NCBI GenBank assembly: GCA_963782915.1
Contig: CAWALK010000018.1
Location: forward strand, 1,994-65,993
DNA from: an uncultured archaeon
Lineage (GTDB): Archaea > Thermoproteota > Bathyarchaeia > Bathyarchaeales > Bathycorpusculaceae
Reading direction: 5' to 3'
Length of the DNA stretch: 64,000 bases
Notes under the pieces: generated by a model
Seen by the model: only the letters and a program-made list of their open reading frames with translations
The model's database searches: none
What the model was told of the DNA's origin: nothing
Program-made: the position numbers and the translations under genes
Shown here: positions 7,218 to 51,378 of the stretch, piece after piece
How the letters are laid out: each line of letters opens with the position of its first letter
Position numbering within the stretch: the stretch's first letter is position 1

Positions 7218-10200
7218 TCACTTGTAGGTCCATTTACCGATTATTTTTTGGGGAGGCAAACGCACTGTGAACGTTGTGCCATTTCCTTCTATGCTTTCAA
7301 AAGTTACTGTTCCGTTTAATGCTTCAGTCATGCGCTTAACCACTGCTAACCCTAAGCCTTGACCTTTAGATTTTGTCGTGAACAATGGAGTGAAAAGCTT
7401 CGGCTTAACTTTATCAGGGATGCCTATACCGGTATCTTGAACAGTGATGACTGTGTCTTCTGCATCCAGATGCGCCCTCATGGTTAGTTGGCCTCCATTT
7501 GGCATCGCTTGAACGGCGTTAGAAACCAGATTCCCAAGAATGCGCTTTAATATAATGCTGTCAACCACAATTGTTTTAACAGGTCGTCTCGATATTGCAC
7601 GAAGCCTTGATGTTTTTAGGCATGTCTTTTCCTTGGAGCAAATTCTGTACAAAGGCTTCCAAGTCAATTTTTTGAGTTGCAGGATTAATCGTCTTAGCGT
7701 AATCTTGAAGGTCAGCTACAATCTTGTTAATGTAATCAACGTTCTTTTCTATCTCTTGCAGGCTTTCTAATACACTCTTTTTTTCTTCACTATCGGGTGT
7801 TGAATCCAATTCTGTTTTAGCCAAGTAAATGTCGCTAGTGATAGCCTGTAGTGGATTGCGAATATCATGCCCAACCATTCCAGCCGTCTCACCTATGGCA
7901 GCCATTCGCTGAGCCCTCTCAAGTTTTTTCCTATCATCAATATCAACAAAGGACAAAACGGCGCCATCTATCCTGTCGTCTTGCGTTATGTAGGGTCGAA
8001 TTTGCATTTCAAAATAATGACCTTTCTCATCTTTTACTTCTCTGGTGAAATAGCTTAGTTTAGAAAATACTTCTGAAATTATTTCGCTCAAGTCGTCAAC
8101 TATAATGTTCAGTTTGATGGTCGTTATTGGTAATCCAACTGTTGCAGGTGACAGATTCAGAGTTTTCTGTGCTGAAGGCGAAAATAGCCTAATCTTTAGA
8201 CTCTTATCGATTATGACAATAGCTGGACCCACGTTCCTATTTATGTTGGTTAAGTCATCGTTCAGCTGAGAAAGCGTTTGGTTTCGGTTCTTCACCTCAT
8301 CATTCAACGTTTTCAATTCTTCATTGCTAGACTGAAGCTCTTCTTTAGCTGTTTCCAACTCTTCGTTTGTGCTCTGCAACTCCTCATTACTCGACTGCGC
8401 CTCCTCCATAGTGGTTCTAAGCTCTTCGTTGGTTGCTTCCTGAGTTTCAATAATCCTCTGCACAGTTTGTTTAGTTGACTCCAATTCTTCCCTGAGCTCT
8501 CTATTTTGGCGGTCCTTAAGGTTTTCTCGACCTTCAGGAGAAATATTTAATTCCATCGTTTGGCGTAAAAGCTTCGCAGCTGAACTTACATCTTCGAATA
8601 ATAGAAGGAAAAACGGTGCCTCATACCGTTCAACATGTATGGGAACAACTTGTATGTTAACTGTTCTCTGTTCTCCAGCATATTCAAACCGCACGGCATT
8701 CTCTTTGACAACTTTTTTCTCTTTTTTTGCCCTATAAATTATCGTTTCGACTTCAGACCTTAACTCTTTGCGAATAATTTTAGCAAGGTTCAAACTTGCT
8801 AATCCAGATTCGGGCAATACATATGATGCTATATTTCCTCGAAAAATTAGAACATCCAAATCAACATTAACTAGCAAGGCGGCAGGAACATACTCGGTGA
8901 CTAACAAACGGTCAACCTCGTCTTTCAACTCTGCAAGGACATCTTTTCTGTCGGCTGCTTTACCTTCTTTAGGTTTAAAATATGGCGTTGATGCTTCCAG
9001 ACCAAAAGTGATACGGGGCGGTGCGATCTTCTTCGTGTAGATTGCAGCCCTTTTTGCTTACAGATTCAAATAATTGAGTGAATTTTCCAATACTTTCAGA
9101 TTGCCCTAAGACCAAAAAGCCACCTATTTTTAAGGCGTAATGAAGAGTCGGCACTACTTTTTCGTGTAGTTGTTCGTCAAAGTAAATGAGCATGTTGCGG
9201 CAGCTGATAAGATCCATGTTAGAGAATGGTGGGTCTGCAGTTATGTCTTGCTTTAGCGAAAACACACATATCTCGAATATTTTTACAGATCTGATAATGT
9301 CCGTTGAAGCTTGTGAAGAAATGTTTTAGTCGTTTTTCGGGTAAGTCGGTTTCTATAGTTTTTAGGTATATTCCTCGTCTTGCTTTTTCAACGTTTCTTT
9401 CGTTCACGTCCGTGCCGAAAATTTGAACCTGAATATTTGTTATGGATTTTTCTTCGAGGAACTCTTGTAGTGCAATTGCGAAGGAGTAAGCTTCTTCACC
9501 TGTTGAGCACCCTGGAATCCAGACACGAATGGTTTCATTGGGCGGGCGGTTTTTCACTAATTCTGGAAACACCGTTTCTTTCAAAGCTGTGAATGTTTCA
9601 GGTTCTCTAAAAAAACTTGTCACTCCGATTAGCATATCGTTGTATAGTGCTTCCAGCTCGTTTGGATGCTTCAGCAGGTACTCTGCGTAATCAGCCATTT
9701 TTTTAATGTTGTTGATAACCATTCGACGTGCGATCCGCCGATTTACGACGGTTTCTTTGTAGTGTGAGAAATCCACCTTGAAACTACTTTTTAGCATAGT
9801 GAATATTGCTTTTAAGGGTGTTCCCAATTCTAGCTTTGCATCATTTGGTTCAGTATCTTCTCTTGACGCGATTTCGCTTCGTGCTAGTTGAGGGTTATAG
9901 CGATTTTTTGTAGTTGTAAGGCCATCTGGTCTGGAGATAGAACAAAATCTGCAGCTTCGGCTGTAATGGCACTTTGGGGCATGTCACCATACTGGGCAGA
10001 ATTTGGAGTTTGTGCGAAAGTGATGCCTCCTTGAGCTTTGATGGCTTTTAGACCTTCAGTTCCATCAGAGCCTGTTCCCGAAAGCACGATACCTATACTA
10101 TGATTTTTCGAGTCCTGGGCCAGGGAAGCAAAGAAAGCGTCAATTGGTTTAACCGAAGACGTACCCTTTGGGTGAAGGGTGAGTAACTTGTTTTCCATGG

Positions 10201-10552
10201 TCAAGATAGTTCCGGACGGAATCACGTAAATATGGTTTGGTTCAACTGGTATCTTATCTTTCACTGTTTGGACGTGCATTTTGGTTAATCTTGAAAGAAT
10301 GTCGGATAGCATGCTTTCTTGGCCAGCCGCAAGATGCTGGATAACAACAAAAGACAAGCCGGTATCTGTTGGTAAATATTCTAGCAGACTTTTGAATGCA
10401 TCTAAGCCGCCGGCTGAGGCACCAATTCCAACTATGGGAATACCTTGTTTGTCTTGGTCAGAAGATTTCTTATTAGAACGCTTGGCTGCTTTTTTTTGGT
10501 TTTCGGGAATTTCGTTCCCCCCCCCCACAAAAGAATTGAAAGATGCCATCAA
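7218..10552 (-). CDS. CheB-CheR-PAS-histidine kinase fusion, copy 1 (frameshifted)
   Basis: CheB GASAGG/QH/SGTGSDG; CheR WIPGCSTGEEAYS, DLISCRNMLIYFD; EELQSTNEEL coiled coil; PAS; H-box GHDIRNPL; HATPase NLVSNAVQA, DTGIG, TTKSKGQGLGL. Confidence 0.9.
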
Positions 10553-10856
10553 GATACTCCAGATGAACAGTGGATATAGTGATGTACTGGCTACTGCATA
10601 AAAGGTTTATGCGTACGGTAAAGTAGTTATTTTTTCTCTGTTTCGCCCCAAATATCTATCGCAAAGCTGGTTAGTGCCCAATGCCATCCTCGCTTCTCCG
10701 CTATCTGTTCTTCGAATTGCTTTTCTAAGCGTTTGTTCATTCTAAGGATTCTACGGCTTATCTGGGGCGAGTGACTTTAAAACGCTCAAGCTCAGCCCAT
10801 ATATCTTTTGGGCAACAGACCTGGAGAGGCTGCCACATAGGGGATTCGCACATAGG

Positions 10857-10940
10857 CTATATGTTAATTCTTATAAACTGACTTGATGATAGGGCTATTT
10901 TGTGTAGGCAGCTCTGGGGAAAGCGGTAAGCTTTAACCTC
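10857..10940 (+). repeat. Truncated copy of the head-operon promoter/leader (full copy 11933-12018 and beyond)
   Basis: ctatatgttaattcttataa...gatagggctattttgtgtaggcagctctggggaaagcggtaagct is present twice. Confidence 0.95.
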
Positions 10941-11093
10941 GTTAGTTCTAGTAAACGCTATGTTAATGTAATTAGTGAATTGTTGGAGTATCGAGAAGAT
11001 GTTAAGGAAAACGACCATGCGACCGATGCTTTGCGGTATAGTTTACCGCTTCAGTTAGAAGAGAAGCCGTTTTTGTATGTAGTTCGGCGCTGA
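10935..11093 (+). pseudogene. Orphan terminase C-terminal fragment, copy A'
   Basis: Encodes ISELLEYREDVKENDHATDALRYSLPLQLEEKPFLYVVRR*; no start codon or upstream ORF. Confidence 0.9.
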
Positions 11094-11340
11094 GGCATAA
11101 GTTGCCCTAGTGATTTTGCTTATTGCCTGTTTTACCTTTTAGAGCCTTATAAAGAGCTTCGAGCTTTCTTCAAATCCTTTTGCCTCGGCACCTTACGCCG
11201 ATTCGGCAAAGAATGATTGGTTGAAATACCACTTGTATATAATTTAGCCACTAAACCCAAACTTTTTATGGTGCTAGAAACAATAGCAAAATGTCATATC
11301 TTTAAATAATATAATCCAGTTGAATTTCTGAGGTTTTTCT

Positions 11341-11607
11341 GTGCATAGAAATGAAGCTGTTGACTTGCTAAAAGAAATACTTGAAAACTGCATAAACATT
11401 ACACAATACGGCATCGCCATTATGCCACCTAACTCCAATGACGTAATGTCAAAAAATTTTCAAATACACGTATTTGGAAATGTTAACAAGCTTGATACCT
11501 CATGTTTAGAGTCCATTATGAAAAAGAGTTGCTTGCAACTAAAATTAATACAGGAAAAGAACCTACTTGTGATATATCGACCAATGAAACCTGAAAGCGA
11601 CTGTTAA
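11341..11607 (+). CDS. Small hypothetical protein, paralog of 11618-11845
   Basis: MHRNEAVDLLKEIL...LLVIYRP. Confidence 0.7.
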   Translation: MHRNEAVDLLKEILENCINITQYGIAIMPPNSNDVMSKNFQIHVFGNVNKLDTSCLESIMKKSCLQLKLIQEKNLLVIYRPMKPESDC

Positions 11608-11617
11608 CTTCTTATCC

Positions 11618-11845
11618 TTAGACTAAAGCCTTCCTGTGAAAAATAACGATAGAGTCGCCTTCTTCCTTAACGTCCAAGTTACGCTTTTTGGCTACAGCCT
11701 TAATGAGTTGAGTATCTTTGGTTTTGATTCTAAGGATGGATAGTTTGGTTTCATCCTGTCGCTCAATAGAAACAGAATCCGGCGAAAGGTTAATGTCTTC
11801 ACCCAAAAGTGCCTTTAGGTAATCTATCGCGTCGTTTCGGTTCAT
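11618..11845 (-). CDS. Small hypothetical protein, paralog of 11341-11607
   Basis: MNRNDAIDYLKALL...SIVIFHR. Confidence 0.7.
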   Translation of the reverse strand: MNRNDAIDYLKALLGEDINLSPDSVSIERQDETKLSILRIKTKDTQLIKAVAKKRNLDVKEEGDSIVIFHRKALV

Positions 11846-11933
11846 TAATACCTAATTTAAGTATGCTTGTCTGTTCATTTAAGACTTGTTATGAGCACCA
11901 ATTTGAAAATTTTTGTTTTAGCCCAGCGTTGAC

Positions 11934-11951
11934 TATATGTTAATTCTTATA
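11934..11951 (+). promoter_or_regulatory. Putative viral late promoter of the head operon (TATATGTTAA-ttc-TTATA)
   Basis: Motif shared with 3332, 10858 and 20589. Confidence 0.65.
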
Positions 11952-11986
11952 AGGCTGATTGTGAGTGATAGGGCTATTTTGTGTAG

Positions 11987-12072
11987 GCAGCTCTGGGGAA
12001 AGCGGTAAGCTTGACCTCTCCCCGGGGCTGCGGGCTTGCCTTTTCCCCATGGGTTGACCGAAATTTCGGGTC
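11987..12072 (+). other. Structured 5' leader of the head operon
   Basis: 13-bp stem GCAGCUCUGGGGA/UCCCCGGGGCUGC (2 G-U pairs) enclosing an AAGC-GGUAA-GCUU hairpin; second hairpin at 12056-12072. Confidence 0.5.
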
Positions 12073-12081
12073 TGTTGCTGA

Positions 12082-12945
12082 TTGAGTGAAGGTTTGGGCT
12101 GTGGGAAATGCAAGCGAGTTCATGAGCAGATAGCTCAGATTCTGCCTTTTCGGGTGCTGGAAGCCGCTGAGGGTAAGCCATTGCGGATTGCAGGCGTTGC
12201 TATGACTGCGGGCATGTCCCGTAACCACAACGTTTACACTTCTGAAGAGTTGGAGGCTTTTGCTCCTAAACTTGTCGGGGCACCCATCTATCTTGAGCAT
12301 GTCACCGTTGAATCAGCCATTGGAAAAGTTACTAACTGCGTTTTTGATGCCCAATCCAAGAGCTTGCGGTATGAAGCGGAGATTTACGACCCAACTATGG
12401 CTGAGAAGATCCGTCAGGGTTTGATTCAGCATGTGAGTGTTGGGGCAGACTACGATGCACTTGATACAGCCAACGTGCCGCATGGGTTGCATAACGCGGA
12501 GATGTCGCTTGTTGCAGTGCCCGGTATTCCCGAAACCAACATCCAAGTTTTAGAGGCTTTACGACAGAAGGGGGTTGGGGGTTTGGAAGAAAAAGACATT
12601 GAAAGTGTCGCTGAGAAAGTCGCTGCTAAGATCGGCGAGAAAAATTCCCTTGAAATTGAGGGTCTGAAAACAAAGCTTTCGGAAGCGGAAGGTAAGTTGG
12701 CGGCTTCTGAGGGTAAACTTGCCGAAGCCAACAGGACAGTTGAGCAGCTAAAGCAGCTTGTACCCGGTGTGGACTTGCTGAAGAATCCGCCTAAACTGAT
12801 GCCTGTCTCTGAAGCTGTCAAGATGGTTAAGGAAGCACTGCCTGCGCCAATGATTCAGCGTTCATGGGGACTTGGCCCTCAACGCATGTGTCAGGACCTG
12901 CAGCGTGTCGTCCAGAAACTTGAGACTAGGGCTGGTGGCAAGTAA
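12082..12945 (+). CDS. Prohead maturation protease with scaffold-like coiled-coil C-terminus
   Basis: GVAM...SRNHNVY...PIYLEH...HVSVG...EMSLVAVPGIP; coiled coil follows. Confidence 0.85.
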   Translation: MSEGLGCGKCKRVHEQIAQILPFRVLEAAEGKPLRIAGVAMTAGMSRNHNVYTSEELEAFAPKLVGAPIYLEHVTVESAIGKVTNCVFDAQSKSLRYEAEIYDPTMAEKIRQGLIQHVSVGADYDALDTANVPHGLHNAEMSLVAVPGIPETNIQVLEALRQKGVGGLEEKDIESVAEKVAAKIGEKNSLEIEGLKTKLSEAEGKLAASEGKLAEANRTVEQLKQLVPGVDLLKNPPKLMPVSEAVKMVKEALPAPMIQRSWGLGPQRMCQDLQRVVQKLETRAGGK

Positions 12946-13158
12946 ATGGCTGAGAAATCTGCCGAGGGAAAACTCCACGAAGTCGATGACACAGAAGCTG
13001 ACGCCGTTATCGAGTTTGCAAGCAGGGCAATTCCTCATAACGAGATGCTTGGCCGTGTTGTCCGCAATATGTACAAGCGGATTCAGCAGTTAGAAGCCCA
13101 AGTTAAGGACCTGCAAGCGAAGCCCAAAAAGGCTGCCGCTAAAGTTGGAGGTCCATAA
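12946..13158 (+). CDS. Small head-module hypothetical protein
   Basis: Abuts the protease stop codon; coiled-coil C-terminus. Confidence 0.55.
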   Translation: MAEKSAEGKLHEVDDTEADAVIEFASRAIPHNEMLGRVVRNMYKRIQQLEAQVKDLQAKPKKAAAKVGGP

Positions 13159-13236
13159 GTTTTGCTCACTTTTGTGGGGCTAGTAGCGCCAGGACGAACT
13201 GGTGTGAACGCAGAAACAATAGGGAGATTGATTTAG

Positions 13237-13662
13237 ATGACTGATTTAACTGGAAAATCTTGGATGGCTATAGGCGAAACTGACGATCCAAACGCTGTTA
13301 TAGAATCTTTTGAAGCGGCTGCAGGCATCACCAAAGGCTCACCGGTTTACTTGAGTGCAGACGATAAGGTTTCCGCCAGCCCAGGCGGAGACAACGCAAT
13401 AGGAATTGCAGTGAAAACCGTTTTGACTGGTCAACAGTGCCCAGTGCTAACCCGTGGGAGAGTCAAAGTGACGGCTGGCGGCGCTATAGCAAGAGGTACA
13501 GCGGTTTGCAGTGCTGCTGCTGGCAAAGTGATTCAACTTGTCGATCAAGCTGTTGACGAGGGCGGCGCTGCGAAATACACAATTTTCTTCAACCGCAAAC
13601 TTGGCTATGCACTAGAGACTGCTGCGCAAGATACCGACCTGCTGTTTATTGAGGTGGGATAA
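13237..13662 (+). CDS. Capsid cement/decoration protein (DUF2190-like)
   Basis: AAAGITKGSPV...AIGIA...VLTRGRVKVTAGGAIARG; directly upstream of the capsid gene. Confidence 0.75.
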   Translation: MTDLTGKSWMAIGETDDPNAVIESFEAAAGITKGSPVYLSADDKVSASPGGDNAIGIAVKTVLTGQQCPVLTRGRVKVTAGGAIARGTAVCSAAAGKVIQLVDQAVDEGGAAKYTIFFNRKLGYALETAAQDTDLLFIEVG

Positions 13663-14615
13663 TGAAGCCCAAACTCTACGAGTCATTGATGCAGAAAGAC
13701 GCTGGATTCAAAGAAGTCATGGAAAAACTCAAGCTGAAAACTGACCATCCATTCCTAAAGCGCTATGCGCTTATGGGTGTGAAGGAAGGCTTTTTCAGCG
13801 ACATGTCAGGCGCTCTTGGCAGAATGCATGATACGATGGTTGATGCTGCATGGCCTGAATTGATTGGCCGTAGCATAATCAACGTAATGCCAACCAACGA
13901 AGCCATGGAACGCTTCCCAATCGATGCAGGCGCAATTGCTTACGAATACGCTGAAGGCACTATTACCCGGCTCTCAGGCAAAAAAGCCTCAACTGTTGAC
14001 ATCAACGCAAACATTCTGGCAGACTCTTCAGATGAGTGGACAAGGGAATACCTTGAAGACGCATCTTGGAACGTCATGGACCGTGCAACACAGAACATCG
14101 GCAACGCTTTAGGAGTTAAAGAAACCGAGAAGATTCTGGCACTATACACTGCTGTTTTAGCTGCTGACTTAGCTACTGGCGCAGACCTTGCAGGCGGCGG
14201 TACTGTGATGAGTTGGACAAAACTGCTTAGCTTGTGGCATGCTGTTAAGTCTGAGAAGCGAAGAGCAACTGTTATCGCCCTAAACGATATGCAGGTTGCA
14301 CAACTCCTCAACGATAGCACTTTCACAAACGCACAGTCTTTACCCTCAGCACAAACCGACCTCGAAGCCGGCGTTGTCAGTGGCGCTTTGGGCATGAAGA
14401 TTGTTTCAAGCCCACTTGTCACCAACGGTGTTGCATTCGCCATCGATACACGTGTTGCCTCCGCGATGCTTCTGCGCCGAGACGTAACTGTCGAGGACTG
14501 GGAAGATGTCAAGAACGGCAAATACGGTGTCAGAGCCACAACTCGCTTCGGCTTAGGCGTCCTAGATTCCAAAGGCATTGCAAGAATGACAAACATCAAG
14601 ACGACAATCACTTAA
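13662..14615 (+). CDS. HK97-fold major capsid protein
   Basis: Size, position and C-terminal LLRRDVTVEDWEDVKNGKYGVRATTRFGLGVL pattern. Confidence 0.88.
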   Translation: MKPKLYESLMQKDAGFKEVMEKLKLKTDHPFLKRYALMGVKEGFFSDMSGALGRMHDTMVDAAWPELIGRSIINVMPTNEAMERFPIDAGAIAYEYAEGTITRLSGKKASTVDINANILADSSDEWTREYLEDASWNVMDRATQNIGNALGVKETEKILALYTAVLAADLATGADLAGGGTVMSWTKLLSLWHAVKSEKRRATVIALNDMQVAQLLNDSTFTNAQSLPSAQTDLEAGVVSGALGMKIVSSPLVTNGVAFAIDTRVASAMLLRRDVTVEDWEDVKNGKYGVRATTRFGLGVLDSKGIARMTNIKTTIT

Positions 14616-14631
14616 GCGGTGCATTCGCCCG

Positions 14632-14649
14632 TTTTTCTTCCCCTTTTTT
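14632..14649 (+). terminator. Possible oligo-T terminator after the capsid gene
   Basis: tttttcttcccctttttt pyrimidine tract shortly after the stop codon. Confidence 0.35.
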
Positions 14650-14680
14650 GGGTTATCAAATCATATCGGGGTCTAAGCAT

Positions 14681-16018
14681 ATGAGTAGCGTTTACAGAAA
14701 AATCCGTGAGGTCCTCTCCTATGCGCCTGTTTCAGGCGTGGCAAAGCCAAATGGCAGAGTGTTCTTTGATACTTCCTGCATTCCCCTAATTGATGTTATG
14801 AAGCTCTATGAGCGTGACCCAACCTGCAAGGCAAGCGTGGATCTGTTGGCTGCCTCCACAGTTGGCATGGGCTTCTACACTACCGTGGACGAAAACTATG
14901 ATAAGGCTAAAGAAGCCAAAGCCGCCGTGGATAATTTCTGCGAAGACATCAACTTGGACGGCTTGCTAAACGATATGGCTAAGCCGCTGATTGGCTGCGG
15001 AAACGATTTTTGGCTTAAATTAACTCCTGACAAACTAACCGAAACCTTGCGCATGCCCATAGATGCAGTGCAACGCATCGGGCTCAGTAGTGTTCCCAAT
15101 CTATAGCTTACCCTACAAAGTCACAGGTTATCAACTCAAGAACATTCCTATCGCGGGCAAAGCTCGAGAAATGAGCTTAAACCTGAAGCGGTCATTCACT
15201 GGCGCCTTAACGGCGATATTCCCTCTGGCTACGGCGTTGGCTTGCTGCAGGTGCTTTTGCACACGTTAACCGTTGATTCGGATAAGCGTCCGGCTGTTGC
15301 TTGGATGAAAGCCAAAATCGAGCGCATAATGCCCAAGATTTTTGAGAAGTATGCGGGACCTGACGTTTTGGCGATGTTGGAGGGCGTCGATGAGGCAACG
15401 GTGAAGTCGTTTGAGCAGGCCATCAAGAATCGGGATGAAGAGGGCGCTTGGCTATTCTACAACAAAAAAATCGATTTAAAGCCTGTCACGATTGACCCCC
15501 GAGCACAGGGCTTTGTTTACTACATCGACCACATCATTAATCAGTTCTATTTGGGCTTGGAAACGCCTCTGCCACGGCTTTTTAGCACTCCAGGCTTTAC
15601 CGAAGCATCGGCAAGGGCAGCGTTGGACTTGCAGGATATGCTCATAAAACCCGTCCAACGCTACATCAAACGTCAAGTAGAACGGGAACTTTTCTCGCCT
15701 ATTGTTGCTCAAGCTGGACTTGATTCGATTAAGGCTAAGGTGCGGTTGAATTATGGCAGCCCCGAAACTCCAGAACTTAACTCTGCTGACCTCATCAAAG
15801 CCGCTGAAACTGGGTTGATTCGAGCAGAGGAGTTCCGTAAGAACGCTATCAAGTTTGGCTGGGAACTCTGGGAACAGAAGCCTACCGCGGCGACAGGGCA
15901 ACAGCAGACGGTTAGTCTTGAGGGTTTGCATGGAAGAAAAGGCGCAGGCAAGTATCTTGTGGTGGATTTAGGGAAGAATGAGGAGTCTGCTAAAGTTGAG
16001 TCTACTGGGAATAGTTAA
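14681..16018 (+). CDS. Portal protein (frameshifted)
   Basis: LYERDPTCKASVDLLA...GMG; HWRL...GYGVG; LGLETP...EASARA...IKPVQRYIKRQVE. Confidence 0.8.
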
Positions 16019-16307
16019 GGCTGTAGCTGCTGTACAGTTGGTTGGTGAAGCAAAAAGCCGTATTCCGGTTGGGTTGCAAGGTTTAACTTTCTATAGCCAA
16101 AGGGATGAATGGGTTTTTTTGTCGAGTGGTCACCCCAATATGTGCGCTGATTGCGCAGACTGTGATGGTAATGTTTTTTTGGGAACGGAATTGCGTAGTG
16201 CTTTTCCATATCACACAATTTTGGACGAGAATATTATTGCTGCTTCTGTTCATCCTAATTGCTCGTGTTTGCTATTGAGGGCTTTTTCTGCGGGACGTTA
16301 CATGTAG
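15978..16307 (+). CDS. Small MuF/SPP1 gp7-like minor head protein
   Basis: HPNMCADC...HPNCSC motifs; follows the portal gene. Confidence 0.55.
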   Translation: MRSLLKLSLLGIVKAVAAVQLVGEAKSRIPVGLQGLTFYSQRDEWVFLSSGHPNMCADCADCDGNVFLGTELRSAFPYHTILDENIIAASVHPNCSCLLLRAFSAGRYM

Positions 16308-16454
16308 TTACCCTTCAGCAATTCCCCTGCTGAGAGTTGTTCTTGCTGCGGAGCTGTTCTTAAGAAGGATGCGACAGTTTGTGAGAAATGTTAACAACAG
16401 CTAGATTCAGCTAATGATTGGTTTGGAGGACAATAAGACGTATCTTTTTTTGGC

Positions 16455-16500
16455 GAGTTTGGGCTGGGAATTGTGGGACGACAAAGCACACTCAAAATAA
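16455..16500 (+). pseudogene. Orphan portal C-terminal remnant
   Basis: gagtttgg(g)ctgggaattgtgggac...taa reads EFGWELWDDKAHSK* after removing one G; compare portal KFGWELWEQK at 15851-15880. Confidence 0.6.
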
Positions 16501-16517
16501 ACTCATTGTAGTGCCAT

Positions 16518-19500
16518 TTACCGTTTAGCTCTTGGGGGGAAACGTAAAATGAATTTTGTGCCTTTGCCTATTTCGCTCTCGAAAGTTATTTTGCCGCCTA
16601 ATGCCTCAGTCATGCGCTTGACCACTGCTAAGCCAAAGCCTTGACCCTTCGATTTAGTAGTGAAAAGCGGAGTGAATAGTTTTGGCCTAATTTCTTGTGG
16701 GATACCAACACCTGTATCCTGAACAGTTATGACAATATCGCCAGCATCCTTGACCGCATGAATATCAAGTTTTCCACCCTGCGGCATAGCCTGAACTGCA
16801 TTACTTACCAGATTACTTAAAATTCGCTTCAACATAGCTGGGTCAGCAATCGCCTTTTTCGCTTCTTTCTCGACTATGCATGAAGCGTCAATGTTTTTTG
16901 GAATACCATTATTAAGCAGCACTTCTTGGCAGAGCGCTTCAACATCTGTTTCCTGAACGGTTGGCTTGAGTGGCTTTACAAAGTCTTGTAGGTCTTGAAC
17001 AATCTTGTTAATGTACTCAACATTCTTCTCAATGCCTGCTAAACTTTCTTTCATGCCCTCTTTTGCTTCGCCTTCAGGCATCGAAGCTAAGTCAGTCTTA
17101 GCCAAATATACATCACTGGCAATTGCTTGCAAGGGATTACGAATATCATGCCCAACCATACCTGCAGTCGCGCCAATAGCTGCTAAACGCTCGGAGTCTT
17201 TGAGTTGACTTGGTTCGTTCTTCAACAAGCTTCTCCAAGTTCTTAGCATATTTATCAAGTGCCTCTTCAGCTTTTTTGCGTTTGGTAATATCTGTGAAGG
17301 ATAAGAATGCCCCGTCAATTTTCTTGTCTTCAGTTAGGTACGGTCGAATCCGCATTTCATAGAAATGGCCATCCAAACCCTCAACTTCTTGACTAACAGG
17401 AGTTAACTTATCGATTACCTCCGTTATCATCTTATCCAAGTCTTGAATATGAACTCCTGGAGTTATGTTGGCGATGGAGCCCCCAACATCGGATGGCGAA
17501 ATTCTCAAAAGTTCTTGGGCTGCAGCAGTGAAACGCCTTATCCTCAGGCCACTATCAACGATAACCACTGCGATGTCAATGTTGGTTTGCAGATTTGCTA
17601 AGTCATCATTTAGGCGACCAAGAGTCTGATTGCGGTTCTTAAGCTCCTCATTTAAAGTCTGCAGCTCCTCGTTGCTTGACTGCAACTCCTCTTTAGCTGT
17701 TTCGAGCTCTTCATTTGTGCTCTGCAACTCTTCATTGCTCGACTGAACCTCTTCCATAGACGACCGCAACTCCTCATTGGTTGCTTCCTGCCCCTCAACA
17801 AGCGTCTGCAAAGACTGCTTAGTTGCCTCCAAATCCTCCCTAAGCTCACGAATCTGACGATCCTTAAGACTCTCTACCTCGCACAGGCGAAACTGGAGCT
17901 TCAACTTCGTTGTCTTGAATGCAGATCATTTGAACGGTGTTTCGGTAAACAATACAAGGTAGAAAGGTTCGTCGTATTTCGGTGTTTCTAATGGTCTTAT
18001 CTCTATGCTAACTGTTTTTGGTTGCCCTTTTTGTTTAAGCGCACCGTTTCTTTGAAGGCTTTCTTTTCTTTCTTTGCTCTATAAATGGCAGTCTGAATTT
18101 GTGACCTCAATTCTTTTCGAATAATCTTTGTTACGTTAAAACTCGCCGCTCCTGATTCAGGTATAAGATAAGGAGCAACATCTCCACGAAAAACCAGTAT
18201 ATCCAAGTTATTGTTTACCAACAAAGTCGCTGGACCATACTCTGAGGTTATAAGATGGTCAACTTTATCCCCTAAAACAGTCAGCAGATCTGCTTTTTCA
18301 ATGCGGTTTAACTGATCTTCTTCGTAGCAGTGGAATAAAGGCTTCATTAAACAACATGTTGTGGCTGGGCTTGCTTCTTTCTGTAAATTAAGCCTTTTGT
18401 AGTAATTGGTTCAAACAAGTATTGGAATTTGCCAACACTTTCAGATTCTCCCAAAACTAGAAAACCATTGGGTTTTAATCCGTAATGGAAAATTGGCAAT
18501 ACTCTTTCGTGAAGATACGAGGTCAAAATAGATGAGAACATTTCGGCACATGATGAGATCTAAGTTAGAGAAAGGCGGATCGCTTGTTATGTCCTGCTTT
18601 GCAAATATGCACATGTCCCGGATGAGTTTTGTGATTTGGTAATTTCCGTTTTGCCTATTGAAAAAACGTTTTAGTCTATTTTCGGAAACGTATGTCTTCG
18701 ATAGTTTTTGGATATATTCCTTGACGAGCTTTCTCAATATTCTTTTCATTCGCATCCGTACCAAAAATTTGAACCCGTATCTCAGGCATGACTTTTTCTT
18801 CTAGGAATTCTTGAATTGCAATGGCTAAAGAATAGACTTCTTCGCCTGTTGAGCACCCCGGAACCCAAACACGGATGGATTCATCGGGTGACCTGTTTTT
18901 GATAAGTTCAGGAAAAACTTTTTCCTTCAAAGCCTCAAAAGTTTTTGGTTCTCTAAAGAAACTTGTCACGCCTATTAGCAGATCATCAAACAAGGCCTGA
19001 GGCTCATTTGGGTGGGTCCTGCAGATACTCGATGTATCCTTTCATGTTTTTGGTCTTATTTATGACCATGCGACGTGTAATGCGTCGGTTTATGGTTGTT
19101 TCTTTGTAGTGCGTAAAATCTACCCCGAAAGAAGTTTTTAGCATCATTATAATTTTTTTCAAGTCAGATTCTACTTTTTCTGGTTTGGTGTTTTTGTTTC
19201 AGAAGGAATGAGTTGAGGGTGATGGGCGATTCTCACTAGTTCTTTTGCTATCTGTTCTGGGGAAAGGATAAAATCGGGGTTTTCGGCATGCTATGGCGTT
19301 TTGGGCATGTCGGGGTATTGCGCTGTCTCTGGGTCTTGTGCGAAGGTTATTCCGCCTTCAGCTTTAATTGCTTTTAATCCTTCGGTTCCGTCATTGCCAG
19401 TTCCTGACATGACGATTCCAATTGCTTGGGTTTTTAGTTCCGAAGCTATGGAAATCATAAAGTCGTTGATGGGTTTAAGAGCTAAACCTTTGGGAACAAG

Positions 19501-46198: not shown

Positions 46199-46663
46199 TT
46201 ACTTCTTTAGTTCTTTTTTCATTGCTTCTGCGAGTAGCTTCCACATGTCAGAATCGCCCCTGCAAAGCTCTTCCGATAGCTCTTTGAGGTCTTTTTGCGT
46301 AAAGTTCTCATTATACTCGATGTGGAGGGCATTAAAATCCAGACGAGAAGCGCCTTTGCCTTCAGCGGTGATTTGGTAGATGAACTGCGAGTACTTGATT
46401 GGACCAGACACATGCGTTGAAACCCACATTAACCGATCTGGGTAGAGATGCACAAGCTTTTCTTTTTCAATGGTGCCGTTGTTCGTTGGAAAGATTTCTT
46501 TAAGCATTACTGTACCCTCGGTTAGTCTTGTAACTGTGCGTTTTGCGTCTTTGTGACCCGTGAGGGTGTGGTCGTCTGGCTGATAATCGGTGCACCACTC
46601 ATAAGCCTCCTGGGCGGAAACACGGAACTATTGACTGAAACTATAACGAACTGTATATGGCAT
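46199..46663 (-). CDS. SRPBCC-like protein with in-frame TAG at codon 12
   Basis: ATG at 46663 is in frame with ORF 46199-46507; TAG at 46630-46628; AQEAYEWCTDY. Confidence 0.5.
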
Positions 46664-46700
46664 AGGGCTTTCTTTCCTTAGCCTCAAGGAACAGAACCTT

Positions 46701-48070
46701 CTATATTACAATTCCGCAACTGGACGGTTTGGCAGAGAAGAAATCGCTTATCCGCCTCTGAAACAGCGCCTTCTGCAACAGTTGACTCTGGCTAATCCAA
46801 CGCGGCAACGCAATCTCAAATTTGCCGCTGATAAACTGCAGCGACTGCGCTAAGGTGTTGAATTTGTAGGGTTTCTGGCGCATGGCATTGCGCACGTTTT
46901 CTCTGTACTTGCCATACACCGATGGGCATGATGTAGCCTGGGCGGGCTTCGCGCAGCACTATTGCGGTTGCTTGACGCCGCTCCTTTAGGAGCAACTCGC
47001 AGACGGCTAAGCGTGCGCTGTAGTAGCAGCCGCCGATAGCCGCATAGGTTGTGCGCCCGTTGTTGCCTTCCCAATCGCTAGTAGATGGCGACGCTTGAAC
47101 CGTTAGGATTCCAAACCGTGCCCGGATACCACGCCTCCATGGATTCGTAGCTCCATTGCCCAGGAATCAGCAGGATTTCGAAGACGTTGTCGAGGTAGAC
47201 GGATTCGTAGACTCGGTACTCGTTGATTTCGGGAAAGGTTTTGACTTGGGAGACGAGGCTCTTGGAGATAGTGTCATCGACAGCTGTGATGCTCCATCTT
47301 GTCGGAACCAGGCGACGACGTTTTTCAACTCCAAACGCGCCGACGCTAAAAGCCTTCTGAATCTTAGTAACCGTAACACCCGATTTATAGAGGTCCACTA
47401 CTGCATTTGTCGCTCGCAGGTCGGTGTCGTAGTAGGCTTTTTCGATTTTTTGGTCATAGCGTGCATTGCCTACATGGAGGTCGCGGATGGGCGCTGAGGG
47501 ACCAAACGGCTGCACATCGTCGCTAAGAGTTATGGAGCCGCGGGGTTTTTTGGTTAAGTTAAGCTCGGTATCTACGCTGCTGTCGGCAAGTGCTAATTCG
47601 CGGGTTTGGTCGAGGATTTTGCCTGCTTCATTGATTTTTGTTACGTTAACCATGTGTTTGCCGCGTATGAGCAGGCTGCGAAAACCGACGATTTCATCCA
47701 TGGATTTGCCGAACCATTGCTCGGGCAAGTCAAAGATGCTTGTATCCTCATGGACAGGCGGAACTAAGGGTCCGATGTAGACGTTGGGGTAGCCGATTCT
47801 GCCTATGAAAACACTGGGTGGAGAGACGCCGTTGATGTTTTCGCTGTCCATTAGGGGGACGCTTTTGAGGAAATAGTTGACTTTAACCATGATTGGGCAG
47901 CGGGTTTTGCCGCATAGCATGCGGGAGCCTTTGCAGAGTACGCAGAGGCTGTTGCTGTTGCGTGTGACGACTTGCTGCTCGATTGCGTTGCTGTTGACTT
48001 TTTTGATGATGTCCATTAACCAGTTATCAGGGTTTGTCGTGTTGACAGCGGGTTTTTGGGTTAAAGCCAT
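46701..48070 (-). CDS. nreA: NreA DNA repair protein (frameshifted)
   Basis: CVLCKG...LCGKTRCP, RRRLVPTRWSITAVDD, C-terminal PIP-like QRRISDFF. Confidence 0.85.
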
Positions 48071-48246: not shown

Positions 48247-49269
48247 ATGAAGAAGGCTTCAATCTACCCCCTATCGCTGCTGCTTGCAGTAACAATAGCA
48301 ATTTCAGCGTTCGCAACGGTTGGTGCAACATCAACCGTTTCAGTCTACATAATGGACCCCAATAACCCAGCTAACGGAGGCAAAGGGCTCCAATCCAGCG
48401 GTTACTGGGTCGGGCAAATCCCCATCCAAATAACAGGGGGCTCCACAGTTTTCCAAACACTCAGTTACTGCATGAACTTTGACTTATCGATTAACATCGG
48501 CGGAACCTACTCTGCCAATTTAGCAGCCGCCACTGACAGTGCCGAATGGCGGGCAGTCAGCTACTTGCTAACATGGAACAATCCAACCACAAACAATGAA
48601 GCGGCAGCATCCCAAGTTGCAGTCTGGAGATTACTCAATCAAACCAGAGGAACCAACTATTTCCGCGAAAGCTGGCTTAGCACAGACATCGATAATGCAG
48701 GCAGCGCCTTAGCCACAGCTGCATTGGGCAAAGACGTCGTGCGGCAGGGCGACATATTCAGTTGGGTCTCACCCATCACAGCCAACATGTCAACCACACA
48801 GGCTATTCCAGGACAAACCGTAACCTTCATTTCACAACTAACAGACTCCGTGGGTGCGCCAAGAGCAAACGTCAAAGTACTATTCAATGCCACACTCAAC
48901 ACTGGCAGCCAATCAACACTGCTAAATTCAACTTATGTGTCAGCCGCCTCAACATACACTGATAATCAGGGACACGCTCAAGTCAGCGTAAGAGTACCAT
49001 CAGACACAGCGCTTGGCGCAACAATCGCAGTTGAAGGCGCAACACAGAGCATCTGGCCACAAAGATACATAGACGTAACCAACCCCTCAACACAGGACCT
49101 AATCGGAGTCGGCGACACCTTCCAGTTGACACTATCAACCAACGTTTGCCTATTGGGATTCATCACGGTGCTTCCTGAATCACCCATCGGACCCATTGCT
49201 GCCATCGGAGCATTCGGCGCCGGCTTTGTCGTCTGGACAAAAATGAAAAAGAAAGCCGTTAAAGAATAA
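48247..49269 (+). CDS. Surface protein with thioester (TED/TQXA)-type motifs, Ig-like insert and PEF-CTERM-like anchor
   Basis: Signal peptide; YCMN (C75); SQVAVW (Q123/W127); beta-sandwich; TQDLI (Q283); VLPESP-TM-KKKK. Confidence 0.65.
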   Translation: MKKASIYPLSLLLAVTIAISAFATVGATSTVSVYIMDPNNPANGGKGLQSSGYWVGQIPIQITGGSTVFQTLSYCMNFDLSINIGGTYSANLAAATDSAEWRAVSYLLTWNNPTTNNEAAASQVAVWRLLNQTRGTNYFRESWLSTDIDNAGSALATAALGKDVVRQGDIFSWVSPITANMSTTQAIPGQTVTFISQLTDSVGAPRANVKVLFNATLNTGSQSTLLNSTYVSAASTYTDNQGHAQVSVRVPSDTALGATIAVEGATQSIWPQRYIDVTNPSTQDLIGVGDTFQLTLSTNVCLLGFITVLPESPIGPIAAIGAFGAGFVVWTKMKKKAVKE

Positions 49270-49279
49270 GCGGCGGATT

Positions 49280-49858
49280 CTATTTTTCGTAGAACCGCTT
49301 AGTAATTTTCTTAATCAACGAATTGAGTTTCTTGGGCAACTTGGGTTTTATTTCATCTACCTTACGCAAAACAGTCGGCAAGGGTATGCGGGTTACGTTA
49401 GCATCGATGACTTTTAATTCGCCGTTTATCCATCGCAGATTATCGGCTTTAACATCGAATATGCCGTATTTGTAGATGGCTTGGCGAACGCAAGTCAGTT
49501 GTTCTTTGGTTACGGTTGCTTTGACGCCGTATTCTTGTAGGAGGCAGTATTTTGTGTGCCAAAAGATTCTGGCAAAAAATCTGTGCCGCACATGCTCAGG
49601 CACCCGCTTGTAAGCTCTATGGTCGAGTTCGATGCTTTTTTTTGGCCCCACTTTGAGCACAACCTTATGGTCTATTGTGCGGTTGCCGAAAACGACTTTA
49701 TGCCAGCCGCTGCTTTCAAAATAAAAATCGGGGTAATTCTTTGAAATAAGCTTTTCTAACTCCTCGGAGGATAGAAAAACGCACCACCGCGGGCATGTGT
49801 CGGCGTCTATTAAACGGTCAATATGCTTGGCTTCGTGATGGAGTTCTCTGTACTTCAA
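49280..49858 (-). CDS. Minimal protein-kinase-like fold protein
   Basis: SSGWHKVVF loop, VVLKV, DVKADN catalytic-like loop, KVID. Confidence 0.55.
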   Translation of the reverse strand: MKYRELHHEAKHIDRLIDADTCPRWCVFLSSEELEKLISKNYPDFYFESSGWHKVVFGNRTIDHKVVLKVGPKKSIELDHRAYKRVPEHVRHRFFARIFWHTKYCLLQEYGVKATVTKEQLTCVRQAIYKYGIFDVKADNLRWINGELKVIDANVTRIPLPTVLRKVDEIKPKLPKKLNSLIKKITKRFYEK

Positions 49859-50135: not shown

Positions 50136-51378
50136 TTAGACGAGGACGCTTGCGCCTGGAAACTTGTTAATCGCCACCACACCAATCAGATTGACGATTA
50201 CGCCTATGATGATGAGCACTTTGTGGTACCATTTCAGGTTCCCGCCCATACCCCGCACGGTCAAGAGGAACAGAAACGGGTAGAAATCCACGGCATATCG
50301 GTAGCCAAAACCCCAGCCTGTAGCGGCGTTAGTAAATATGACTGCGGCTATGCAAAAGACGGCTAGCCAACTCCACCATGTAACGGAATCTCTGATTTTG
50401 GATTTCAACGCAAAGATAAAGGCTGGTGTGGTGAACCAGATTGCCATGCCACTCATGGGAAACTGAACGAAAGGCGCATTAGCAGTCAGCATTGGTAGCC
50501 CCAGCAAAAACGGCTTCAAGTTGTCGGTGATGTAAAGCAGACTGAAGTGGCCGTGGCTAAACCATGGTTCATCCAAAACGCCGGGTATCATCCAGTAACC
50601 GACGGGAAAGATAGTGCCGTATCGGACAAAGTTGTAGATGAATTCCAACCCTACAAAGACAGCCATACCAGCTGCCAATTTCAAGAGGTAAGGCAGGGCA
50701 GACTTGAATTTATTTTTCCACTCGGCATTCTGTTGCTGCGAAATCGCCAATCCCACAAAAAAGAAGATGCCCAAAGCGGTTGGGAGTCGGCACCAGAAAG
50801 CCGCACCGACAAGCAAGCCTATGAGAAGGGGACGGTTTTTGTTAAAGCACTCATAAATTGCCAATAGCATGAAGAATGTGGCGATGACTTGCGCGATTAA
50901 CCAGACGGAGCCGATGCTTGCTAAGTACCAGAAAATGGTGCCGAAGCCGAAATAGGACAGCAAACCAGATGTAAGTTGATTTTTTGGCAGCGTTGGCTTG
51001 CTTGGTTTTAGCCAATACACTTCTTGCCACAAGATAAGCCAATGGTACTGTGGCGGCGGCGAAGAATATCCCAAACAGGGTCTGGTTGAGTTCTAAGCCG
51101 AAGATTGCTACAAACGGCACCATCAACACCGCCGGCAAGGGTGGATAAACAACGTAGTAGCCTATTCCGGCAGGGTTAGGTATGAGTTCATTTAGCCAAC
51201 TGGGATTATCCAGCAAATAGAGACGCCCGTGCAGAAAAGCATCCGCCAGTCGCACATAATAATTGTAGTATGTAGCGTGTCCCTCGCCTGTTAGCCAAAA
51301 AACGATGAAAGCAACTACGAAGAGCACGATAAGTATTAGGAGGGTTTTGGTGAGGCGAGAGTGCAGTTTGCTTAGCAT
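50136..51378 (-). CDS. Multi-TM GT-C-like glycosyltransferase/membrane protein (frameshifted)
   Basis: YVVYPPLPAVL, many TM helices, GFGYRYAVDFYPFL. Confidence 0.55.

Follow-up and report, generated by a model that had tools for sequence, protein, structure and literature searches.

Internal-thioester adhesin domains have been presented as a feature of Gram-positive bacteria (PMC6194298; PMC13685950, 2026), and the locus considered here raises the question of whether an archaeon can display such a domain on its surface as well. The window, that is the whole stretch of DNA that was analysed, comprises 64,000 nucleotides of contig CAWALK010000018.1 (assembly GCA_963782915.1) from an uncultured archaeon of the Bathycorpusculaceae, and the gene in question encodes a protein of 340 amino acids (aa) that an earlier note, made from the letters of the DNA, had described as a surface protein bearing the signature of a Class II thioester domain (TED). 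We consider it probable, at roughly 0.65, that this TED-like protein is secreted, stalkless and anchored in the archaeosortase manner, and that its Class II-like TED autocatalytically forms a thioester between C75 and Q283 through which it would bond to an amine of its target; this suggests a covalent attachment chemistry in Archaea. Full-text literature searches turned up no archaeal TED that has been characterised, in agreement with the earlier note, whose reader knew of none.

Domain assignment and conservation

A position check of the complete and intact open reading frame (ORF) found the signal peptide, the YCMN, SQVAVW and TQDLI motifs and the tail made of VLPESP, a transmembrane helix and basic residues each where the earlier note had read them (Table 1). 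Of the 2005 ORFs of the genome that reach 200 aa, a single one has the three motifs combined in this order, namely the TED-like ORF itself. The protein possesses only two cysteines, C75 (in YCMN) and C301 (in VCLL), and the Thr of the TQXXphiW motif is replaced in it by Ser (S122).

According to Miller et al. [quoted passage not shown] Using AlphaFold2 with the family alignment, we obtained a model of the full protein with a predicted local distance difference test score (pLDDT) of 84.6 and a model of the ectodomain (aa 28-305, 278 aa) with a pLDDT of 94.5 and a predicted TM-score of 0.88. In these models, as assigned by DSSP, six N-terminal strands form the head-lobe beta-barrel (30-35, 47-50, 53-56, 58-64, 67-75, which ends with C75, and 87-94) and are followed by a bundle of three main helices (99-110, 116-129/131-134 and 146-159), the second of which carries Q123 and W127, then by the strands of an immunoglobulin (Ig)-like sandwich (170-268), the hairpin with Q283 (273-287), a long strand (292-302), a linker and a C-terminal helix. 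No alpha0 helix is present, and the elements follow one another as in the published Class II topology, in which the bond-forming Gln has the position that Q283 occupies. The insert that the earlier note had claimed between the helical part and Q283 could be confirmed, with about 90 aa, by DSSP and by Big_1 and MG4 matches. C75 and Q283 are 208 residues apart; the corresponding spacing is 188 in TIEpLS20 (Bacillus subtilis plasmid pLS20), a characterised Class II TED adhesin that we used as reference, and the three Class II TEDs with a solved structure have spacings of 195, 171 and 204 (PMC6194298).

Both models were compared by Foldseek with 350,542 PDB chains. The three solved Class II TEDs (6FWY, 6FWV and 6FX6) rank first with both of them and account for the five best matches of the ectodomain (E 1e-8 to 4e-5, probability 1.00, about 290-314 aligned columns), and matches confined to the Ig-like part rank lower (E>1e-4, about 140-150 columns). 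At the sequence level, the Pfam TED model PF08341 matches aa 74-134 of the protein (E 0.01, 16.7 bits) and 39 of 41 relatives (best E 1.2e-7), with distant members scoring 25.7-31.7 bits, above the 22-bit cut-off; Big_1 is matched over the Ig-like insert in 34 of these 41 relatives. PF08341 across the family, the rank of the three solved structures and the agreeing topology all uphold the Class II signature proposed by the earlier note. Using hhalign and a family profile built from 21 sequences for the pLS20 TIE protein, we obtained a collinear, statistically weak alignment in which C75 falls on Cys68 and Q283 on Gln256 (paper numbering) and D163 is aligned with an Asp that does not vary in the pLS20 TIE family; with the single pLS20 TIE sequence, the YC motif alone was aligned. 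Such an alignment would be consistent with the TED assignment and is no proof of it. PF08341 was found in none of the 14 named control genomes, which therefore gave no bacterial yardstick.

A word-indexed search returned 106 homologues, mostly of 330-345 aa, and nearly all of the named ones are hypothetical proteins of "Candidatus Bathyarchaeota archaeon" obtained from metagenomes. The TED-like protein shares 98% identity with a protein of another assembly (P0002) and 45-70% with about 100 homologues. The family is nevertheless small, since an exhaustive phmmer scan found 68 clusters among 1.84 billion representatives, and it is carried by 8 of the 301 genomes of the class, all 8 belonging to three genera of one family-level taxon. 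An alignment of 41 sequences shows no variation at C75, W127 and Q283, and Q123 is conserved in at least 90%, as are P310 and E311 of the C-terminal tail. The ectodomain as a whole is unusually conserved, with a mean column identity of 0.60-0.73 per region. C75 and W127 are also invariant in a wider set of 32 sequences, which extends down to 23-25% identity and includes multi-domain relatives, and every full-length member of this set keeps a Gln at the Q283 site in the context x-Q-[DNERK]-[LIF]-[ILV]; the residue before it is T in the 340-aa protein and V, I, A, M or Y in other members. Other positions are less constrained: Q123 is replaced by Ala or Arg in a few members of the wider set, the Thr position of TQXXphiW varies between S, A, N, D and T across the family, and C301 is absent from several homologues.

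The earlier note had taken Q283, rather than Q123, as the candidate Gln of the bond, and this choice is the right one because, in the TQXXphiW motif of helix alpha2, both Gln and Trp are dispensable for bond formation (PMC6194298); the hairpin position of Q283 after the insert and its conservation favour the same residue. Q123 as the bond-forming Gln was rejected, as it lies in this non-essential motif and several homologues have Ala or Arg in its place, and so was a disulfide between C75 and C301, as C301 is not conserved.

We also noticed a GKDVVRxGD motif after helix alpha3 that matches no described TED motif. It is nearly invariant in the family, and its residues D163, R166 and D169 do not vary at all among the close members. 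This motif may line the thioester pocket.

Table 1. Features of the TED-like gene and its product (positions in the window)
Feature	Position	Strand	Basis or remark
TATA-like box TCTTATATTAA	48197..48207	+	40-50 nt 5' of ATG; by sequence reading
TED-like surface protein gene, ATG start, 340 aa + stop	48247..49269	+	complete, intact ORF
Sec-type signal peptide, aa 1-27	48247..48327	+	MKK, hydrophobic core (20 residues), then VGA before TS
TED head lobe, aa 28-180	48328..48786	+	DSSP of models; PF08341 over aa 74-134
Y74-C75-M76-N77, [YFL]C-phi-zeta motif	48466..48477	+	C75 codon 48469-48471, end of strand 67-75
S122-Q123-V-A-V-W127, TQXXphiW-type motif	48610..48627	+	on helix alpha2 (116-129)
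G161-K-D163-V-V-R166-Q-G-D169, family-specific motif after helix alpha3	48727..48753	+	conservation
Ig-like beta-sandwich insert, aa 183-270, ~90 aa	48793..49056	+	DSSP strands; Big_1/MG4; Ig-domain Foldseek matches
Hairpin, aa 271-290, strands 273-277 and 285-287, with T282-Q283-D284-L285-I286	49057..49116	+	Q283 codon 49093-49095
Last long beta-strand, aa 291-304, with C301	49117..49158	+	DSSP strand 292-302
C-terminal tripartite sorting/anchor signal, aa 305-340	49159..49266	+	V308-LPESP313, G/A-rich helix 314-331, K332-MKKKAVKE

Upstream of the gene, a GGAG stands 8-11 nt 5' of the ATG at 48247, and together with the TATA-like box it forms a possible archaeal promoter and ribosome-binding site. 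The signal peptide corresponds to a Kyte-Doolittle peak at aa 4-31 and to a helix (3-22) of low pLDDT in the full-length model, and its cleavage would occur after VGA and before TS. In the models, the strand at aa 291-304 probably returns to the sandwich.

Objections, proposed mechanism and anchor

Several results weigh against a thioester-forming TED in this archaeon. The score of the protein on PF08341 is below the gathering threshold of 22 bits; the NCBIfam scan of the protein returned no family and neither a TQXA nor a CTERM model; among PDB chains, phmmer gave spurious feruloyl-esterase matches and no TED, and a search with the family profile gave no match at all; the hhalign alignment with the pLS20 TIE profile has an E-value of 0.002-0.03 and a probability of only 2-5%. 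The Foldseek TM-scores against TED structures are 0.31-0.40, with a root-mean-square deviation of 11-13 A, so that the two-lobe domain cannot be said to match as a rigid body; a different orientation of the lobes may explain these low values. The tail, for its part, is matched by none of the curated CTERM models (TIGR03024 and the Pfam CTERM families) at E<=1. In addition, a thioester exposed in anoxic habitats rich in ammonium and sulfide might be short-lived.

The sub-threshold PF08341 score and the low TM-scores can be cited in favour of a TED fold that persists without its thioester, as a non-covalent binding or structural module in which the Cys and the Gln would serve folding, hydrogen bonding or some other chemistry. 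We consider this unlikely, as the Cys and the distal Gln are co-conserved in every full-length homologue down to the lowest identities of the wider set, where nearly all else is variable, which is the pattern reported for functional TEDs (PMC6194298), and as the lack of conservation of C301 excludes a disulfide role.

The analysis demonstrates the homology and the architecture of the protein. For the preferred reading, a TED with a C75-Q283 thioester, we infer the formation of the bond, the chemistry of anchoring and the nature of the target as follows. The protein would be exported by the Sec pathway, with removal of its signal peptide of about 27 aa. Folding would then return the Q283 hairpin to the head lobe, beside C75, whose thiol would attack the side-chain amide of the Gln with release of ammonia and formation of the internal Cys-Gln thioester, against which Q123 and W127 on alpha2 are expected to pack by homology with bacterial TEDs. 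The VLPESP-helix-basic tail would keep the protein in the membrane, where it would probably be cut and re-anchored by the single archaeosortase of the genome. Finally, an intermolecular isopeptide bond would tether the cell covalently, possibly reversibly, to the target, which may be the envelope of the cell itself, a partner cell, or an abundant polymer or particle.

The tail on which this anchoring depends is tripartite, with a short motif, a transmembrane helix and a basic cluster at the extreme C-terminus. A hidden Markov model of the tail retrieved five other, unrelated proteins of the genome at E<1e-5, which end in [VT]-[LP]-PE-[YNS]-[PAW]-x-G, and about 40-50 ORFs of the genome end in tails of the TVPE[FLY] type (PE[FLY] type); on CTERM models, the tails of other proteins of the genome score 13-15 bits, below the cut-off of 23 bits. 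The genome was searched for an archaeosortase and for paralogues, as the earlier note had proposed, and one of each was found, on contigs C22 and C20, respectively. The only archaeosortase-family gene encodes 352 aa and scores 53.7 bits on TIGR04178 (cut-off 23) and 42.5-48.3 bits on PF09721 (cut-off 25.7). The nearest specific models are those of thaumarchaeosortase and ArtC, and because its scores are far below every specific subfamily cut-off, this archaeosortase is of an unclassified subtype. The reading of the tail as an archaeosortase signal is thus sustained by the presence of one archaeosortase gene and of many similar tails and is not sustained by any curated CTERM model; judged by its letters, the tail is PEF-CTERM-like, not PEF-CTERM.

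The protein has no stalk beyond the Ig-like sandwich and its surface is unusually conserved, and the partner is therefore likely to be membrane-proximal or conserved. Short reach and high conservation also leave room for a staple of the cell's own envelope, in which the same thioester chemistry would produce a bond to a conserved lysine of the S-layer or of another envelope protein and would tie the surface layer to the membrane, the protein being lipid- or transmembrane-anchored at only about 5 nm from the membrane. The anchor placed directly after the TED, unlike in bacterial TIE proteins, and the unusual conservation of the whole ectodomain favour this role, and a single-copy gene that is syntenic across genera is more in keeping with a conserved partner of the cell itself than with an external ligand that varies. 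However, no conserved neighbour gene offers itself as the partner, and the presence of the family in so few genomes of the class would be odd for a core envelope function, so we regard it as improbable, though it would preserve the thioester. Finally, another Cys-dependent identity, either as a thioester protein of the complement/alpha2-macroglobulin type or as a papain/transglutaminase-like enzyme with an Ig domain, is so improbable as to be effectively refuted already at the sequence level, because the marginal MG4/MG2 Pfam matches (E 0.07 in the protein, best 2e-4 in relatives; MG4 over the Ig-like insert only) and the Foldseek matches to C3/C4/C5 and transglutaminase 2 (TG2; E about 1e-3) that speak for it either cover the Ig-like sandwich alone or have a probability of 0.25-0.30 (TG2), because a protein with two Cys only and no C-x-E-Q motif rules out the first type, and because the 41-sequence alignment contains no invariant His for a catalytic dyad, which rules out a Cys-His enzyme.

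Paralogue, wider relatives and neighbouring genes

The single paralogue in the genome, on contig C20, keeps the YC, QxxLW and YQDLL motifs, and its TED is flanked by Big_3_5 Ig-like domains. Its gene ends a type IV pilus-like operon (C20:103000-121000, local 7440-17143, minus strand), in which it is preceded on the same strand by genes for a T2SSE ATPase (15383-17143), a T2SSF platform protein (14281-15183) and four small proteins with pilin-like N-termini. The N-terminus of the paralogue itself (NKQG, then QFVVVAALII) resembles a class III signal. The paralogue may be a pilus-borne covalent adhesin. Its gene is split over three frames (9809-10558, 8161-9825 and 7440-7769), and homologues of 693 and 1039 aa are intact.

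A more distant homologue, P0162 (NCBI MGQ9718574.1, 706 aa), is encoded on a 186-kb contig of a metagenome-assembled genome of the Nitrososphaerales. Its head contains YC, QxAIW, GKDVVR and YQDLI and is followed by SdrD_B and SpaA-type stalk domains, an architecture that, from its predicted domains, is TIE-like and belongs to a different archaeal class. If the TED-like protein and its paralogue are considered together, Archaea would attach covalently through self-generated Cys-Gln thioester warheads, which the genome would deploy in two ways, as a stalkless archaeosortase-anchored form kept near the membrane and as a form encoded in a type IV pilus-like operon, a proposal to which we give even odds.

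Two further PF08341-positive ORFs, both from the same phylum and unrelated to the TED-like family, were observed. One (G384:C114, 913-3243) encodes about 860 aa with GGWCADTD and VQRAIW, in this order, and SdrD-like repeats, and the other (G102:C101, 817-1992) encodes 391 aa with AYCVNMD and QCVIWRI. They suggest that these archaea harbour several TED lineages independent of each other, or else that the contigs are contaminants.

The TED-like gene itself is located on a 267-kb contig and is divergent from an archaeal Nre gene, an arrangement kept in four related genomes. Given the length of the contig, the archaeal neighbour and this synteny, the gene is archaeal and vertically maintained in the lineage. 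Comparison with the related genomes showed no conserved functional partner gene next to it, Nre alone being syntenic. The Nre gene (46429-48070, minus strand), which is archaeal and associated with DNA repair, is split over three frames, and its intact orthologue in a related genome encodes about 450 aa. Since the paralogue and Nre are both split in this way, indel errors in the assembly are likely; alternatively, both are possibly pseudogenes.

On the other side, an ORF of 192 aa (49280-49858, minus strand) converges on the TED-like gene and recurs beside the TED gene in one related genome with 42% identity; it has no Pfam match. Further on (50136-51378, minus strand), two overlapping ORFs of 312 and 175 aa with polytopic membrane segments, also without Pfam match, look like one membrane protein split by a frameshift, possibly glycosyltransferase-like.

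If the archaeal TED is real, covalent-binding chemistry would extend to a second domain of life and would be found also in uncultured sediment archaea. If true, the twofold deployment would give the first case of thioester adhesin chemistry beyond the Gram-positive bacteria, linked here to anchoring and filament systems specific to archaea, and the pilus-linked paralogue and the Nitrososphaerales relatives suggest a broader archaeal repertoire that has so far not been annotated. Pfam already detects some members of the family, which tempers the novelty. An archaeal TED domain could also be a scaffold for thioester-based protein ligation tools.

Comparison with known systems

The closest likeness is to the Class II TEDs BaTIE (6FWV), EfmTIE86-TED (6FWY), SaTIE-TED (6FX6) and TIEpLS20, with which the archaeal protein shares the Cys motif on a beta-strand, the Q/W motif on alpha2, the absence of alpha0, an Ig-like sandwich following alpha3, a hairpin behind this insert that carries a conserved Gln, a Cys-Gln spacing of about 170-210 residues and an N-terminal position right after the secretion signal. 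By contrast with the Gram-positive TIE proteins, the host is an archaeon and identity is only 10-13%. TIE proteins combine a stalk of CnaB/isopeptide or ester domains with an LPXTG sortase signal, whereas the TED-like protein lacks both and carries its PEF-CTERM-like tail directly after the TED; bacterial TIE proteins project their TEDs on long stalks (PMC6194298). The strongly conserved GKDVVRxGD motif is specific to the archaeal family with respect to Class II TEDs, and conservation within this family is much higher than that reported for bacterial TEDs.

As regards anchoring, the PEF-CTERM/archaeosortase C and thaumarchaeosortase systems likewise rely on a P-E-x motif, a hydrophobic helix and a basic cluster at the extreme C-terminus, and the genome, also in line with such systems, has one archaeosortase-family gene and dozens of PE[FLY]-tailed proteins. 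They differ by the motif itself, which is PEF in the PEF-CTERM systems and VLPE[SVA]P-x-G in the TED-like family.

The pilus-linked paralogue invites comparison with Cpa (Spy0125), a TED-bearing adhesin at the tip of Streptococcus pyogenes pili. In both cases, the TED belongs to a protein encoded inside a pilus gene cluster, but Cpa pili are assembled by sortase, whereas in the archaeon the cluster resembles that of a type IV pilus (T2SSE ATPase, T2SSF platform and class III signal peptides), and the paralogue, unlike Cpa, has a Class II-like TED with Big_3_5 Ig domains on either side. The thioester proteins of the complement/alpha2-macroglobulin group, finally, carry a C-x-E-Q motif within a multi-domain TED/MG architecture, and differ in this from the TED-like protein, which lacks this motif.

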